From NCBI RefSeq assembly GCF_003334815.1, contig NZ_QOWO01000070.1: 5,887 nt of DNA, one strand, 5' to 3'. Position numbers and translations under genes: made by a program. This document shows positions 1 to 5,887 of the stretch, piece by piece. Position 1 is the stretch's first letter. Each line of letters opens with the position of its first letter. Under the pieces are notes generated by a model, which searched no databases, had not been told where the DNA came from, and saw only the letters and a list, made by a program, of their open reading frames with translations. The DNA comes from Escherichia coli. GTDB taxonomy: Bacteria > Pseudomonadota > Gammaproteobacteria > Enterobacterales > Enterobacteriaceae.

Positions 1-95
1 ATCGACGATTGCTGGAAAGGCTGGGCCATACTCCTCCGGCAGAAGCAGAAAAAGCTTATTATGCTTCCATCGGAAACAATGATCTGGCAGCCTGA
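1..95 (+). CDS. C-terminal 31 codons of IS3-family transposase OrfB (partial; 5' end outside window)
   Basis: Reading from base 3 gives RRLLERLGHTPPAEAEKAYYASIGNNDLAA then TGA at 93..95. This is the same as the C-terminus of the 290-aa ORF at 3770..4642 except for one D to N change. Confidence 0.8.
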   Translation, partial: RRLLERLGHTPPAEAEKAYYASIGNNDLAA

Positions 96-112
96 GTTCA
101 CAGATAAAACAC

Positions 113-137
113 TCTCCAGGAAACCCGGGGCGGTTCA
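113..137. repeat. Terminal inverted repeat (IRR) of IS629-like copy 1, about 25 bp
   Basis: The reverse complement of the terminus, TGAACCGCCCCGGGTTTCCTGGAGA, matches the IRL at 5811 (TGAACCGCCCCGGGAATCCTGGAGA) at 23 of 25 positions. Exact IR length is approximate. Confidence 0.65.
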
Positions 138-145
138 CTTCCCAA

Positions 146-179
146 CCATAATATTTCTGTCATTTCTGCCCCCTATTAT
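146..179 (+). promoter_or_regulatory. Putative promoter of the phytase-like gene: a perfect Pho-box half-site CTGTCAT (157..163), a 10-bp spacer, and a -10-like TATTAT (174..179)
   Basis: CTGTCAT is the 7-bp PhoB half-site consensus, and its spacing to the -10 resembles PhoB-dependent promoters. The distal half-site (146..152, CCATAAT) is weak, and no canonical -35 is present. Confidence 0.25.
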
Positions 180-226
180 GACGTTGTTTTTACTTCTGAG
201 CGATAACAACGAAAAGAGACAATGAC

Positions 227-1570
227 ATGCACAACTCCAAAATCCGACAAGCTGTACTGGTTGGATGCATGACGCTGAGCGCTAACCTGTGGGCCGAAGC
301 GCAGCCGGTGCAGGCAACGCTGGCTGGGCATGCACTGTTGCCAGTAACATCCGCCGTTTCAACTCCGAAGGATGCGCCGAGCGATCTGCAACAGAGCGGC
401 AAATACACCAGCGGCAAACGCGTCACCGAGCTGGGCAGCGTGGCGGGCAAATCCGCAGATCGTCTGACTGGACTCGGCCTGCCGATCAACGGTCAGCCGT
501 TGCAGGGCCACTCAGGTATCAAACACATGCCCGACGGTACCTACTGGGTGCTGACTGACAACGGCTTCGGCAGCAAAGCCAACTCCCCGGACGCCATGTT
601 GTACCTCAACCACTACAAAATCGACTTCAAAGACGGCACGGTAGTACCGCTGAAGACGCTTTTCCTGCATGATCCGGATAAGAAGGTACCGTTCCACATC
701 ATCAACGAGAGTACCGAACAGCGCTATCTGACCGGCAGCGATTTTGATCCCGAAAGCTTCCAGTTTTCCGACAATGCCTTATGGATCGGTGATGAGTTCG
801 GTCCTTACCTGATCAAGACCGACCTGAACGGCAAGGTGCTGGCGGTGTTCGATACTGAAGTGGATGGAAAGGTGATTAAATCGCCGGACAACCCGACGCT
901 GACCCTACCTGGCGCGCCGGACGGCAAGCAGAATTTCCAGGTTGCGCGTTCCAAAGGCTTTGAAGGCATGGCCATCTCGCCGGACGGCAGTAAGCTGTAT
1001 CCGCTGTTGGAAGGGGCATTGTGGGACGGTGAGCAGTTCGAGAACGTTGGCGGAAAACGCTACCTGCGTATGCTGGAGTTCGACGTCAAACAGCAGGTCT
1101 GGACTGGTCGCAGCTGGCAGTACGTGCTGGAAGACAACCAGAACGCCATCGGCGACTTCAATATGATCGATGACACCCACGGGCTGGTGATCGAGCGCGA
1201 CAACGGCGAAGGCACTACGGATAAAGCCTGCGTCGTCGGTGCGCCGACCAACAACTGTTTCAGTCAAGTAGCCAAGTTCAAACGAGTGTATAAAATCGCT
1301 TTCTCGGACACTAACGTCGGTAAACCTGTCGAAAAACTGAGCTATATCGACCTGATGAATATTCAGGATCCGAACAAGCTGGCACGCAAGCCGCTGAGTG
1401 ACGGTGTGCTGACCTTCCCGTTTGTCACCATCGAGAACGTGGATGTGGTTGACGCGAACCACATTATTGTAGGCAACGATAATAACTTCCCGTTTTCCTC
1501 CAGCCGCTGGCCTAATATGGCGGATGACAACGAGTTTATTCTACTTAATGTGAAGAATTTTCTGAAGTAG
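227..1570 (+). CDS. Sec-secreted phytase-like beta-propeller protein (esterase-like activity of phytase type family), 447 aa; function uncharacterised
   Basis: Long ORF with an N-terminal Sec signal peptide (hydrophobic core LVGCMTLSANLWA followed by EAQ) and a weak RBS (AAGAGA) 8 nt upstream. Repeated motifs (DNGFG, GDEFGP, FEGMAISPDG, ERDNGEG, GNDNNFPF) look like the phytase-like fold. The family call is from memory, not a search. Confidence 0.7.
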   Translation: MHNSKIRQAVLVGCMTLSANLWAEAQPVQATLAGHALLPVTSAVSTPKDAPSDLQQSGKYTSGKRVTELGSVAGKSADRLTGLGLPINGQPLQGHSGIKHMPDGTYWVLTDNGFGSKANSPDAMLYLNHYKIDFKDGTVVPLKTLFLHDPDKKVPFHIINESTEQRYLTGSDFDPESFQFSDNALWIGDEFGPYLIKTDLNGKVLAVFDTEVDGKVIKSPDNPTLTLPGAPDGKQNFQVARSKGFEGMAISPDGSKLYPLLEGALWDGEQFENVGGKRYLRMLEFDVKQQVWTGRSWQYVLEDNQNAIGDFNMIDDTHGLVIERDNGEGTTDKACVVGAPTNNCFSQVAKFKRVYKIAFSDTNVGKPVEKLSYIDLMNIQDPNKLARKPLSDGVLTFPFVTIENVDVVDANHIIVGNDNNFPFSSSRWPNMADDNEFILLNVKNFLK

Positions 1571-1792
1571 GGGGGAGATCATCTCATCGCTTACCTTAAA
1601 ACTATCATAAGGGTTTACTTCCCTTCAGCGGCGCACAAGGCGCAGGCTTCTGGCTTTCAGTCTTATCCAGGAGGAACATACTGAAAGGCCTGAGTAAACA
1701 TGAATAAAAGGAATATTATATAACAGATGATTCTAAACCACGCGACAAAGCGTTGAAGGAAGCCTGCGCGCAGCATGACGGGGCTTTACCAT

Positions 1793-1826
1793 AAAAAAAC
1801 GCAGGCTAACCGCGCCTGCGTTTTTT
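1793..1826. terminator. Bidirectional rho-independent terminator shared by the convergent phytase-like gene and phoX
   Basis: A perfect 8-bp GC-rich stem (ACGCAGGC at 1799..1806 pairing with GCCTGCGT at 1814..1821) with a 7-nt loop, flanked by an A7 run (1793..1799) and a T6 run (1821..1826). It lies 20 bp downstream of the phoX stop. Confidence 0.8.
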
Positions 1827-1845
1827 ATGACGGATGAAGCAGAAA

Positions 1846-3825
1846 TCAGGTGCCGATCATACCGCCGTCGGCTTTCACGATAACGACGGTTGAGGAACGC
1901 GGACGACTGGCCTTATCGCCGTCGGGCCAGCTTGATACTGCCGTCGGATGCTGCGGATCGCTCAGCCCTTCGGCTGGCTCGCCAGGGTGCTGGATGTTAA
2001 TAAACAGCGTCCGGTTATCCGGCGTGAACGCGATGCCGGTGATTTCGCAGCCACGCGGGCCGGTCAGGAAGCGGCGAAACTCGTTGGTACCGGGGATCGT
2101 CGCCACCATCTGGTTGTTGCCCATGCCTTCGTAATCTTTACGGTTGATGGTTGATGACGACACGTCGGTCTGGATCCACAGCACGCCGCGGTGATCGAAG
2201 CTCAGGCCGTCGGCGCTGCCGAATTCCGCGCCCTTCATGCTACCTTTGGCTTCCGGTTTGTCAGTATCGGTGCGACCGCCCATCACCAGAATATCCCAGG
2301 CGAACTGCAGCGCGGTCGGGTCGCCGTTCTGCTCCAGCCAGTGAATGATGTGACCGTAAACGTTTTTGCCGCGCGGGTTGGCCGCATCCACCGGCGCTTT
2401 GCCTTCCTTACCGCGATCGCTGTTGTTGGTGAGCGTGCAGTAAACGCTGCCTGTGTGGTATGGATCAACCGCAATCCACTCCGGGCGGTCCATTTTGGTG
2501 GCGCCCACGGCGTCTGCCGCCAGACGGGTTTTAATCAGCAGGTCGCCCTGGTTTTCAAAGCCTTTGCTGGCGTCAAGCCCGTTTTGGCCGAACACCAGCG
2601 GTAGCCACTCGCCTTTGCCGTCATCGTTAAATTTCGCCACATACAGCGTGCCTTTCTCCAGCAGGCGCATGTTGGCTTTGCGATCCCGCGGGTTGAATTT
2701 GCCTTCCGAGACAAATTTATAGATGTATTCGAATTTCTGGTCATCGCCCATATAAACCACAACGCGGTTATCCGGGGCGAGCGTCACCGCCGCGCCTTCG
2801 TGCTTGATGCGGCCAAGCGCGGTGTGCTTGCGCGGCACTGAATGCGGATCGTATGGATCGATTTCCACCACCCAGCCGAAGCGGTTCGGCTCGTTCGGCG
2901 TGACGTCAACGCTGAAACGCTTATCCACTTCGTTCCAGCGGTAAGAGCCGTCGCTGTCGCTGATGCCGTAACGTTTTTCCAGCGGGTTCATCTCCGCTTT
3001 TTTCACGAAAATATCGGACCAGTTCTCTTCGCACGTCAGATAGGTGCCCCACGGCGTAAAACCGTTGGCGCAGTTCTGCATGGTGCCGAGAATGGTTTCG
3101 CCTTTCGGATCGTCAGCCGTTTGCATCAGCGGGTTATGCAGCGCCGGGCCGGTGATTTTCATCGGCGTGTTAACGGTGATGCGGCGCGCGAAAGATGACG
3201 GGCGCACCACTTCCCAGCCCTGGGCCGCTTTTTTTACTTCAATGACCGACACGCCCATTGCGTTCTGTCCTTTCAGCGCTTTATCAGCGCTCCAGTTGGC
3301 ATCGCCATCTTTAAACAGCAGACCGTTATCGATGTATTCATGGTTCATGGCGAGCAGGCCGTGATCGACGCTGTGCCCGCCCTGCGGCAGGCTAAACCAC
3401 GCCATACCGTCGTGGTGCATCCCGGCCTGCGCCGCCTGCTCTTCCGTGGTGTTGCTGCCGTCGGTTTTAAAAACCGGCTGATTCCCGGCAAGCCCGGTGG
3501 CGTCGCCCCATTTGTATAAGGGCTTCGCGATGTAGCCTTCCGGCACGATAACGGTATCTTCCGTGGAAACCGGCAGACTGGTGAAACCGAGCGCCGTCGC
3601 TTTGCCGAGGTTACCGCTTACGCTGGAGACCGCTTTCGCCAGCGCGTTTTCCGGTTTCAGCAGAAACGGGAACGTTGCCGCGGCACCGGCGACCGCGCCT
3701 GTCTGTAACAGGCGGCGGCGCGACAAATAGACTTCCGCCACCTGCGAAAACGCGCGGTTATCACTCGGGTTGCTGGTCTCTTCACTATGCTCACGTTTGA
3801 ATAAAGTTTTTAACGATCTGCCCAT
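1846..3825 (-). CDS. phoX: PhoX-family alkaline phosphatase/phosphodiesterase, Tat-exported, 659 aa
   Basis: N-terminal twin-arginine motif LSRRRLLQTGAVAGAAATFPFL followed by an AxA-type cleavage region (ALAKA). Size and beta-propeller-like composition are typical of PhoX, including a WGTYLTCEENW motif. An RBS (AAGGAAA) lies about 8 nt upstream of the ATG at 3825. Confidence 0.8.
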   Translation of the reverse strand: MGRSLKTLFKREHSEETSNPSDNRAFSQVAEVYLSRRRLLQTGAVAGAAATFPFLLKPENALAKAVSSVSGNLGKATALGFTSLPVSTEDTVIVPEGYIAKPLYKWGDATGLAGNQPVFKTDGSNTTEEQAAQAGMHHDGMAWFSLPQGGHSVDHGLLAMNHEYIDNGLLFKDGDANWSADKALKGQNAMGVSVIEVKKAAQGWEVVRPSSFARRITVNTPMKITGPALHNPLMQTADDPKGETILGTMQNCANGFTPWGTYLTCEENWSDIFVKKAEMNPLEKRYGISDSDGSYRWNEVDKRFSVDVTPNEPNRFGWVVEIDPYDPHSVPRKHTALGRIKHEGAAVTLAPDNRVVVYMGDDQKFEYIYKFVSEGKFNPRDRKANMRLLEKGTLYVAKFNDDGKGEWLPLVFGQNGLDASKGFENQGDLLIKTRLAADAVGATKMDRPEWIAVDPYHTGSVYCTLTNNSDRGKEGKAPVDAANPRGKNVYGHIIHWLEQNGDPTALQFAWDILVMGGRTDTDKPEAKGSMKGAEFGSADGLSFDHRGVLWIQTDVSSSTINRKDYEGMGNNQMVATIPGTNEFRRFLTGPRGCEITGIAFTPDNRTLFINIQHPGEPAEGLSDPQHPTAVSSWPDGDKASRPRSSTVVIVKADGGMIGT

Positions 3826-4642
3826 TGCGGTTTCCTTTCAAAAAATCGATTTCAAGGGGAATCATTTTTATGCACGTGAGTCTACGGAAAGTATGTTACA
3901 GAAATATAATGAGATACAGCGCGTATACGATGAAAATCATCAGGTGTACGGTGTGCGTAAAGTCTGGCATCAGTTGTTACGGGAAGGAATCAGGGTGGCC
4001 AGATGTACAGTGGCGCGCCTCATGGCGGTTATGGAACTTGCCGGTGTTCTCCGGGGTAAAAAGGTCCGCACAACCGTCAGCCGGAAAGCCGTTGCCGCAG
4101 GCGACCGCGTAAACCGTCAGTTCGTGGCAGAACGTCCAGACCTGTTGTGGGTGGCTGATTTTACTTACGTCAGCACATGGCAGGGCTTTGTTTATGTGGC
4201 GTTCATCATTGATGTGTTTGCCGGATACATCGTGGGATGGCAGGTCTCATCGTCCATGGAAACGACATTCGTGCTGGATGCACTGGAGCAGGCGTTGTGG
4301 GCCCGTCGGCCGTCCGGCACAATTCATCACAGCGATAAAGGCACTCAGTATGTATCGCTGGCCTACACGCAGCGGCTTAAGGAAGCCGGATTACTGGCAT
4401 CAACAGGAAGTACTGGTGACTCGTATGACAACGCGATGGCGGAGAGCATCAATGGTCTTTACAAGGCGGAGGTAATACACCGTAAGAGCTGGAAAAACCG
4501 GACAGAAGTGGAGCAGGCCACACTCACGTGGGTGGACTGGTATAACAATCGACGATTGCTGGAAAGGCTGGGCCATACTCCCCCGGCAGAAGCAGAAAAA
4601 GCTTATTATGCTTCTATCGGAAACGATGATCTGGCAGCCTGA
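3770..4642 (+). CDS. IS3-family transposase OrfB (DDE integrase core), 5'-truncated fragment; the first 45 or so codons of this ORF are not IS-derived, so it is probably non-functional
   Basis: DDE-type motifs are present (WVADFTYV, HHSDKGTQYVS, AESINGLYKAEV) and the C-terminus LERLGHTPPAEAEKAYY is typical of IS3-family OrfB. There is no upstream orfA or frameshift window, and the ORF's 5' end overlaps the phoX start on the other strand. Confidence 0.8.
   Translation: MLVSSLCSRLNKVFNDLPIAVSFQKIDFKGNHFYARESTESMLQKYNEIQRVYDENHQVYGVRKVWHQLLREGIRVARCTVARLMAVMELAGVLRGKKVRTTVSRKAVAAGDRVNRQFVAERPDLLWVADFTYVSTWQGFVYVAFIIDVFAGYIVGWQVSSSMETTFVLDALEQALWARRPSGTIHHSDKGTQYVSLAYTQRLKEAGLLASTGSTGDSYDNAMAESINGLYKAEVIHRKSWKNRTEVEQATLTWVDWYNNRRLLERLGHTPPAEAEKAYYASIGNDDLAA
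3864..3901 (-). promoter_or_regulatory. Candidate phoX promoter: -10-like ATAAAAAT with a weak Pho-box-like CTGTAACATACTTTCCGT about 12 bp upstream (on the phoX-sense strand)
   Basis: Position and spacing relative to the phoX ATG are plausible. The proximal half-site matches the consensus poorly. The site lies at the junction with the truncated IS copy. Confidence 0.2.
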
Positions 4643-4684
4643 GTTCACAGATAAAACACTCTCCAGGAAACCCGGGGCGGTTCA
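3905..4684 (+). mobile_element. 5'-truncated IS3-family (IS629/IS1203-like) copy 2: the 3' roughly 60 percent of the element, with IRR but no IRL and no orfA
   Basis: Recognisable OrfB sequence starts around EIQRVYDENHQVYGVRKVW (about 3911) and runs to the terminus ...CGGTTCA at 4684. Upstream of about 3905 the DNA is the phoX 5' region. The left boundary is approximate, give or take about 15 bp. Confidence 0.8.
4660..4684. repeat. Terminal inverted repeat (IRR) of IS629-like copy 2
   Basis: Same terminus as 113..137. Similarity to 1..137 ends exactly after TTCA at 4684. Confidence 0.65.
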
Positions 4685-4705
4685 CAATTTTCTTCAACTG
4701 CAGGA

Positions 4706-4735
4706 CCTGACGGAAAACAAGTGATTTCCGTCAGG
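4706..4735. repeat. Perfect 11-bp inverted repeat (hairpin) CCTGACGGAAA / TTTCCGTCAGG with an 8-nt loop, 21 bp outside the IS629-like right end
   Basis: The two arms are exact reverse complements, read directly from the sequence. No U-run follows on either strand, so it is not a canonical intrinsic terminator. Confidence 0.6.
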
Positions 4736-4951
4736 GAGAAATCGCTTAGCGGGTGTTATCGCAGAAATTCCCACGGAGCCCCATCAACGCCAACCGGTGT
4801 ATATTTCATTTGTGGAGTCTCCAGTCTGAGGGAGCTTTATGCATCCCGTATTGGGCACTATGATGCCGGAAATCTGCGAGGCTCCACACCTGCCAGTTTC
4901 ACCCTTTTAACCATCATACTGCTCCGTGTTTAATTGTGTGGGATGCGTTCA

Positions 4952-5122
4952 TTACATTTTCACCATTTTGCCACTGCGGCCCCGGAAGACGAAGATATGC
5001 CCGGAGAACGGGTCATCTTTCAGCGTGTTCTGCACCTTCGAAGCTAGGCCGTTGAAGCCACAACGCATATCTGTGATGCCAGCGATGATCCAGATTCTGG
5101 TACCGGTCGGCAGCGTTATCAT
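4952..5122 (-). CDS. tnpB: IS66-family TnpB (orf2), truncated: 56 aa where about 115 aa is expected
   Basis: My own translation of the minus strand gives MITLPTGTRIWIIAGITDMRCGFNGLASKVQNTLKDDPFSGHIFVFRGRSGKMVKM then a stop, carrying the IS66 TnpB hallmarks (TDMR.GF.GL, DPFSGH.FVFRGR). Its ATG overlaps the upstream ORF's TGA as ATGA, the usual IS66 orf1/orf2 coupling. No frame continues the TnpB sequence beyond 4952. Confidence 0.7.
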   Translation of the reverse strand: MITLPTGTRIWIIAGITDMRCGFNGLASKVQNTLKDDPFSGHIFVFRGRSGKMVKM

Positions 5123-5796
5123 CGGATCCCCCCTTTCATTTCGCGAATGAGCACCCTAAGAAGTTCCGGAGTGAGAGGGGCAAACAGTTTTACCACACCT
5201 GATTTAAGATGCAGCTCACACTGTGGTGAGTCTACGGTAGTGTCACTCTGGCTTTCATCAGACTTATTTCGCCAGAAAGGATTTGTCACCGGTTTGACGG
5301 GGTCAGGAGTCTCAGTGATTGCCACCGGAACGGCCTGGCATTCCTGGAGATCCTCATCATTCAGCAAGCCCTCTTCATACAGTCTTTTCCAGTTAAACAA
5401 CAGATTGTCATTAATATTGTGCTCTCTGGCGATCCGTGCAACGACTGCACCAGGCTGTAATGCCTGTTTTACCAGCCTGATTTTAAATTCACGACTGTAG
5501 GAGGTTCGTCGTTCTTTTCGCCATGTGCTTTCGCTGATTTGAGGATCATCAGGTAATTCCTTCTTTCTGTTGGCATAAAGTATGGCATCGAGTTGGGCGA
5601 CTGAAAGTGATTCAGGTAATGGCCAGGTAATACCGGAGGCATTAAATCGTTGAAAGAGATTATGAATGGTGGAATGACTGAGACCTAACTGCAGGGCGAT
5701 AGCCCGGACAGATAATTGCTCGTCGAATCTTAGACGTAATGCGTCTGGCAAATAAGAGCGAAAGCCGGTGATATCTTTTGCTGTCTGAGAATTCAT
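5119..5796 (-). CDS. tnpA: IS66-family TnpA (orf1)-like HTH protein (C-terminal 130 aa or so) with an N-terminal 90 aa or so resembling an IS21-family IstA HTH; a possible in-frame chimera
   Basis: The C-terminal part (RRTSYSREFKIRLVKQALQPGAVVARIAREHNINDNLLFNWKRLYEEG ... ELHLKSGVVKLFAPLTPELLRVLIREMK) has the IS66 orf1 HTH and C-terminal pattern and is translationally coupled to tnpB. The N-terminal part (LSVRAIALQLGLSHSTIHNLFQRFNASGITWPLPESLSVAQLDAILY) resembles the IstA N-terminus with its WPLP motif. Both calls are from memory. Confidence 0.6.
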   Translation of the reverse strand: MNSQTAKDITGFRSYLPDALRLRFDEQLSVRAIALQLGLSHSTIHNLFQRFNASGITWPLPESLSVAQLDAILYANRKKELPDDPQISESTWRKERRTSYSREFKIRLVKQALQPGAVVARIAREHNINDNLLFNWKRLYEEGLLNDEDLQECQAVPVAITETPDPVKPVTNPFWRNKSDESQSDTTVDSPQCELHLKSGVVKLFAPLTPELLRVLIREMKGGIR

Positions 5797-5810
5797 CGTT
5801 CGTGTCCATC

Positions 5811-5835
5811 TGAACCGCCCCGGGAATCCTGGAGA
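5811..5835. repeat. Terminal inverted repeat (IRL) of IS629-like copy 3
   Basis: Matches the reverse complement of the right-end termini at 23 of 25 positions. Confidence 0.7.
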
Positions 5836-5863
5836 CTAAACTTCCTGAGAAAGAGGTAAACAG

Positions 5864-5887
5864 GATGACTAAAAATACTCGTTTTTC
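5864..5887 (+). CDS. N-terminus of IS3-family OrfA (MTKNTRF...), partial at the window edge
   Basis: An ATG 53 bp inside the IRL with an upstream AGAGG. MTKNTRF is the start of the IS629/IS1203-type OrfA as I remember it. Confidence 0.7.

Follow-up and report, generated by a model that had tools for sequence, protein, structure and literature searches.

The 5,887-nt stretch of DNA analysed here (the window) is assigned to an Escherichia plasmid, and its bases 1-4782 are 99.98% identical to the E. coli plasmid pJNE25-005_2. It carries a phytase-like gene of 447 aa on the plus strand (227-1570; Pfam PF13449, 'esterase-like activity of phytase family protein'), which ends in a TAG stop codon at 1568-1570, and, convergent with it on the minus strand, phoX (1846-3825), which encodes a PhoX-family phosphatase of 659 aa and has its TGA stop codon at 1846-1848. 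The spacer between the two genes measures 275 nt (1571-1845) and contains a predicted bidirectional intrinsic (Rho-independent) terminator at 1793-1826. A search of the literature on the phytase-like/phoX pair on E. coli plasmids found nothing.

Upstream of the phytase-like gene lies a candidate Pho-box (CCATAATATTTCTGTCAT, 146-163), which departs at two positions from a loose two-repeat pattern, one that is matched in the window no more often than by chance, and which is followed after 10 nt by TATTAT (174-179). This candidate site would fit phosphate-starvation control of the gene. The upstream stretch 148-226 is 74-78% conserved in Salmonella and Serratia relatives.

The pair of genes (144-3909) is bracketed by IS3-family sequences in the same orientation, namely a full copy represented by its right end at 1-143 and a 5'-truncated copy at 3908-4685 that is 94-98% identical to the former, and one more copy starts with its left end at 5811 (5811-5887). 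In this composite-transposon-like arrangement the window resembles the IS-bracketed mosaic modules of F-type and I-type plasmids, as it does in the module boundary set by an IS66-family remnant in a sister plasmid and in further rearrangements (see below), and nothing about the 144-3909 pair is distinctive when it is compared with such mosaics. The stretch 4686-5810 differs from pJNE25-005_2, where pemI/pemK follow instead; it holds minus-strand ORFs of 225 aa (5119-5796) and 56 aa (4952-5122), and the Shigella plasmids that match across the window carry IS66-family TnpA annotations in this stretch, which may coincide with the two ORFs.

Homology limits within the spacer

Bases 144-1584 are 93% identical to a phytase-like locus on the chromosome of about 225 of the 5,426 complete E. 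coli genomes. The blastn alignment stops at 1584, 14 nt past the stop codon, and the 14-nt 3' flank of the phytase-like gene (1571-1584, plus strand) is the last homology to the chromosomal locus; when window bases 1500-1900 were used as query, the match in the 225 genomes was limited to query bases 1-85. From the other side, bases 1589-3910 are 95% identical to plasmid CP099215, which has phoX and lacks the phytase-like gene, and bases 1743-3909 are 93.5% identical to chromosomal phoX islands of about 95 E. coli genomes. To the left of the phoX flank, CP099215 has an IS66-family remnant, with matches ending at the equivalent of window position 1589, and the neighbour in the chromosomal islands, at the equivalent of 1743, is an iron-ABC-transporter permease gene that is truncated. 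Because these limits are nested in the public records, we assign 1589-1845, terminator included, to the downstream flank of phoX and only 1571-1584 to the phytase-like gene.

The distal part of the phoX flank (1589-1742) is non-coding, is confined to plasmid-borne phoX modules, and diverges at an approximately neutral rate with homopolymer indels; it was found in 4 of the 5,426 E. coli genomes and in 9 of 72,556 plasmids, with phoX next to it each time. The proximal part (1743-1792), also non-coding, is common to all phoX modules including the approximately 95 E. coli chromosomal islands. It is followed by the terminator, which accompanies phoX in every context, and by the 3' untranslated stretch of phoX (1827-1845, minus strand), the distance from the phoX stop codon to the terminator stem being 24 nt. 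Conservation of the spacer in related genomes, lack of which the original prediction had named among its refuting observations, was found nowhere outside this mobile phoX module: in 80 other species no similarity to the spacer was seen downstream of phoX, and when metagenomes were scanned with the best-conserved 22-mer, the hits were three copies of the same plasmid types and two chance matches. A dispersed repeat of the REP, ERIC or MITE type was rejected, since a sensitive blastn search of the 5,426 E. coli genomes located the spacer only beside phoX.

In the approximately 95 E. coli chromosomes, phoX lies within an island of mobile-element debris. The permease pseudogene that follows the shared 100-nt flank is N-terminally truncated (L004, 4450-5004; L005, 3261-4004), and in one strain an integrase fragment is found in its place. 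Another breakpoint occurs in contig L104 (GCA_017739655.4), which is 100% identical to window bases 1-1698 and then continues with different sequence, phoX and the terminator being lost past 1698. Because this contig is rearranged within the spacer, the latter evidently tolerates breakage. From position 4472 on, L104 carries pentapeptide-repeat, ABC-transporter and YcaO genes and resembles a microcin B17 cluster.

The junction of the two modules (1585-1594) holds the string CGCTTAC (1588-1594), which equals the terminal 7 nt of the canonical IS66-family right end, without identity beyond those 7 nt, and the position of which coincides with the boundary of the IS66 remnant in CP099215. These seven nucleotides, weak evidence by themselves, suggest that an IS66-family element was once present at the join and disappeared almost entirely as the modules were brought together.

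The phytase-like gene and phoX lie apart in 79 of 80 phoX loci, among them those of all sampled Enterobacterales, and the same holds for the loci of three phytase-like relatives, those of Salmonella, Serratia fonticola and a metagenome, which are the closest ones. The only other genome with the pair among the 80 phoX loci is a Lautropia metagenome-assembled genome (L054, 1-1932 and 2110-3396), in which a phytase-like gene is convergent to phoX (54% protein identity); this may be a sign that the two phosphate-scavenging enzymes have been paired repeatedly for functional reasons. No phoX donor (>90% identity outside Escherichia) was found among the 80 species, the closest having 81% protein identity.

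It is unlikely that the phytase-like gene, the spacer and phoX formed an ancestral unit acquired from an unsampled donor, with the chromosomal phytase-like locus, plasmid CP099215 and the chromosomal phoX islands as later truncations and the spacer non-functional all the same. The Lautropia pair would agree with such an origin, as the pairing may be older or favoured, and so would the similar divergence of both modules from the corresponding loci on E. coli chromosomes (93% and 93.5% identity) and the fact that the other phoX contexts have visibly been cut by mobile-element debris, the IS66-family remnant in one case and the truncated permease in the other. Against it stand the rarity of the pair, the identity of CGCTTAC at 1588-1594 to an IS66-family terminus at the very point reached by the IS66 remnant in CP099215, and the lack in the window of the stop-proximal hairpin which is present in the chromosomal phytase-like copy and apparently in its relatives (see below). 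A secondary join is favoured over an ancestral pair, and it is in this direction that we infer the modules to have moved.

The terminator and the tail of the phytase-like gene

The hairpin at 1793-1826 consists of an A7 tract (1793-1799), a G+C-rich stem of 7-8 bp (1800-1806 with 1814-1820, extension being possible to 1799/1821), a loop of 7 nt (TAACCGC) and a T6 tract (1821-1826). Its arms of 13 nt are perfectly complementary with 7 nt in between, and on each strand a U tract lies 3' of the stem, encoded by T6 for the plus strand and by A7 for the minus strand. The hairpin region folds with -20.6 kcal/mol on the plus strand and -20.5 kcal/mol on the minus strand, corresponding to z-scores of -6.5 and -5.7 relative to shuffles; a consensus terminator scan flagged the minus-strand site of this hairpin and not the plus-strand site. 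The strong bidirectional terminator predicted for 1793-1826 is well supported by these values and by the A7 and T6 tracts, the symmetry of which should allow termination in both directions.

By linkage, the terminator is taken to be that of phoX, because both homology modules that include it (1589-3910 and 1743-3909) travel with this gene. It is found with phoX in all three contexts, i.e. in the plasmid type of the window, in CP099215 and in the chromosomal islands, and the block 1789-1845 has 0 substitutions at 56 positions compared to CP099215, so that it is conserved relative to the neighbouring non-coding 1589-1788 (14.6% in the same comparison; see below). A hairpin soon after the stop codon is also apparent, by eye and unscored, in phoX relatives at most of the other Enterobacterales loci shown. 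The original description of a shared terminator is thus apt for its geometry between convergent genes and less so for its origin, the hairpin being, by linkage, phoX's own.

Bidirectional intrinsic terminators between convergent bacterial genes are a known concept (bioRxiv 10.1101/2022.10.23.513370). The hairpin in the window is like the known examples in being a single G+C-rich hairpin between convergent genes, flanked by A and T tracts, and in folding equally well on either strand. It is unlike them in its asymmetric position, 24 nt from phoX versus approximately 228 nt from the phytase-like gene, and in that it belongs, by linkage, to phoX, the phytase-like gene simply having access to it.

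The long, ORF-poor tail that had been noted after the phytase-like stop at 1570 was confirmed, and its length, 222 nt from the stop to the A tract and approximately 228 nt to the stem, fits the 'about 220 bp' initially given. No terminator-like hairpin was detected between the phytase-like stop and the 1793-1826 hairpin (1570-1793). In contrast, the chromosomal phytase-like copy has a stable hairpin followed by U5 approximately 42 nt past its stop codon (GAACGGUGC-UGA-GCACCGUUUUU), which was missed by a simple consensus terminator scan, and phytase-like relatives in Salmonella and Serratia have apparent hairpin-like inverted repeats, seen by eye, soon after their stops. In the window, the structure of 1571-1640 is no better than that of shuffles (z = 0.04) and the chromosomal-type hairpin is absent. 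The simplest reading is that the join left the phytase-like gene without its native terminator. Because the native-type hairpin is lacking, the phytase-like transcript would run approximately 228 nt further, presumably reading through the spacer to the hairpin of phoX. Of the possibilities raised in the original prediction, a long 3' UTR therefore holds in a passive sense, in that no earlier hairpin is present and the chromosomal-type one is missing; its transcription is what we infer.

Divergence, reading frames and RNA structure of the spacer

Between the window and CP099215, 29 of 198 positions in 1589-1788 are substituted (14.6%) and 4 indel columns are found in addition, compared to differences at 32 of 323 fourfold-degenerate sites of phoX (9.9%). 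Because of this, the spacer appears to evolve at the neutral rate or faster. The proximal flank 1743-1792 differs by approximately 13% between lineages, and the A run at ~1704-1710 shows length differences of +1, +2 and +3 nt. Among close window-type plasmids the spacer has 4 substitutions and 2-3 indel columns, and the silent sites of phoX differ by 0.6-1.2% in the same comparisons. A block of about 38 nt (~1616-1652) has one substitution and one indel between lineages by our own count, for which the nominal P of ~0.02, an estimate, is not significant when several windows are allowed for. As 1589-1742 is represented by only two well-diverged lineages, the window type and the CP099215 type, tests of selection and covariation have low power in this region. 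The spacer behaves as unconstrained DNA, whether the pair is the product of a join or ancestral.

The reading frames of the spacer are in keeping with this. It contains ORFs of 20, 24 and 37 aa only, which bears out the earlier statement that no convincing ORF is present, and no gene was called within it in 10 public contigs with the locus or in the RefSeq record. We regard it as very improbable that the spacer is a decayed protein-coding gene once located downstream of phoX, or a gene for a small hydrophobic peptide in the form of the 37-aa ORF (1663-1776, minus strand). The product of this ORF is indeed hydrophobic (MLRAGFLQRFVAWFRIICYIIFLLFMFTQAFQYVPPG), a minus-strand frame is open over ~36-77 codons in all lineages, and a truncated permease gene comes straight after the shared 100 nt in the chromosomal islands. 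However, the 37-aa ORF contains indels of +1 and +2 nt that shift its frame in two lineages, and the best-shared minus-strand frame has approximately 50% protein identity, as judged by eye, at 87% DNA identity, which is the reverse of purifying selection. The ATG of the 24-aa ORF is missing in CP099215, no ribosome-binding site was seen by eye before either ATG, and every open frame is altered between lineages because the A run at ~1704-1710 differs in length. NCBIfam gave no match for ten open-frame translations of the spacer, and the longest frame (77 aa), the only one so searched, had no match among 5.8 billion proteins.

A small protein or type I toxin is not supported, as frame and start codon are not kept among relatives, and the small ORFs were rejected in view of frame-shifting homopolymer indels and high amino-acid divergence. 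A pseudogene is not supported at the protein level, no homology having been found for the ten frames in NCBIfam or for the 77-aa frame in the protein database. The suggestion that the tail might be the decayed remains of a lost gene accordingly fails at this level and keeps a softer meaning, that of a leftover flank travelling with phoX and, at the junction, a 7-nt string identical to an IS66-family end.

Two small palindromes that had been pointed out in the tail are both present, CTGCGCGCAG exactly where it was placed (1764-1773) and GAGATCATCTC one base off, at 1575-1585. The latter is a 5+5 inverted repeat with a single central base, and no hairpin is possible. There are 15 repeats of the 5+5 type with a centre of 0 or 1 nt in the window, and at least two occur in 9% of spacer shuffles. 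Plasmid CP141865 and the chromosomal locus have G in place of T1579, within GAGATCATCTC, and every other variant has G in place of A1772, within CTGCGCGCAG. Functional palindromes were rejected, as their frequency is that of chance and each is due to a lineage-specific single-base change.

A perfect inverted repeat of 11 nt is found at 1640-1650 and 1759-1769, with arms 108 nt apart. Four copies of the motif CGCAGGC/GCCTGCG are present, two in the arms of the terminator and two in those of the 11-nt inverted repeat, and GCCTGCG-N6-ATGACGG occurs twice, at 1762-1781 and 1814-1833. The repeated GCCTGCG motif may be the vestige of a duplicated terminator. Neither CP099215 nor the chromosomal type has retained the distal repeat, and the direct repeat 1762-1781 versus 1814-1833 matches at 14 of 20 positions, as is seen in 45% of shuffles; the two exact 7-mers within it are rarer in shuffles, a pattern that was noticed post hoc.

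Small RNAs derived from 3' UTRs are known in enterobacteria, e.g. CpxQ, SroC and DapZ. The tail of the phytase-like gene is like these in being long, untranslated and terminated by the intrinsic terminator of the mRNA with its U tail; it is unlike them in lacking above-neutral conservation, covariation and an Rfam match, as well as an internal promoter or a known processing site. There is accordingly only a very small probability that a plus-strand regulatory RNA, either processed from the 3' UTR or transcribed from an internal promoter of its own, ends at the shared terminator. The strong terminator with its U6 tail would suit such an RNA, as would the better-conserved block at ~1616-1652. 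Folding gives some encouragement too: without the terminator, the plus strand of the spacer folds moderately better than shuffles in two lineages (z = -2.4 in the window and -2.0 in its CP099215 homologue), and a similar long-range stem is found in both spacers.

The alignment of lineages gives weak evidence against a maintained structure. Consensus folding of a five-sequence alignment, which holds two diverged lineages only and has low power, gave 0 compensatory pairs out of 69 and 9 pairs broken in CP099215, among them those of the 1654-1687 hairpin, where four changes are found, none of them compensatory; the covariation term of the consensus fold was +1, i.e. unfavourable. The search for conserved structure with covariance models that had been proposed was run against Rfam, where with permissive E-values no family reached threshold, the best scores being 26.9 and 21.9 bits versus gathering thresholds of 55 and 50, and the sub-threshold matches (STnc50, sroD) align essentially to the terminator. 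A promoter scan detected no promoter-like site inside the spacer. Together with divergence at or above the silent-site rate, indels included, these results count against the small RNA put forward in the original prediction. The chromosomal phoX islands, moreover, retain only 1743-1845, and L104 lacks everything past 1698, the terminator included. Slightly less probable still is that the phytase-like tail of ~250 nt, or a fragment of it, has been co-opted as a regulatory RNA that is carried by the plasmid and induced on phosphate starvation, with a seed at ~1616-1652 and a scaffold formed by 1620-1650 with 1759-1783.

Origin of the interval and its significance

We consider it likely that the 275-nt interval is non-functional intergenic DNA, most probably a recombination scar, and that it contributes neither a gene nor a small RNA nor any regulatory element of its own. 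The phytase-like gene and phoX, two phosphate-scavenging genes, would have been joined tail to tail on Escherichia plasmids at ~1585-1594, with 14 nt of phytase-like flank to the left and the downstream flank of phoX to the right. As the join would have come without a chromosomal-type hairpin, phytase-like transcripts would cross approximately 228 nt of drifting DNA before reaching the phoX terminator, and the outcome would be an accidental long 3' UTR on the phytase-like mRNA. The sole selected element of the interval would then be the phoX terminator at 1793-1826.

We regard the interval as an ordinary non-coding spacer. For annotation, there is nothing to add in 1571-1792, and the terminator is to be credited to phoX. 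The spacer would be of interest in itself only if the tail yields a discrete RNA, which we hardly expect. Its boundaries at 1584/1589, 1698 and 1743 provide markers for tracing the rearrangement of modules among Escherichia plasmids and chromosomes. The oddly long gap between the two genes may be explained as a by-product of mobile DNA assembling two phosphate-scavenging genes on a plasmid, where one gene probably borrows the terminator of its neighbour.
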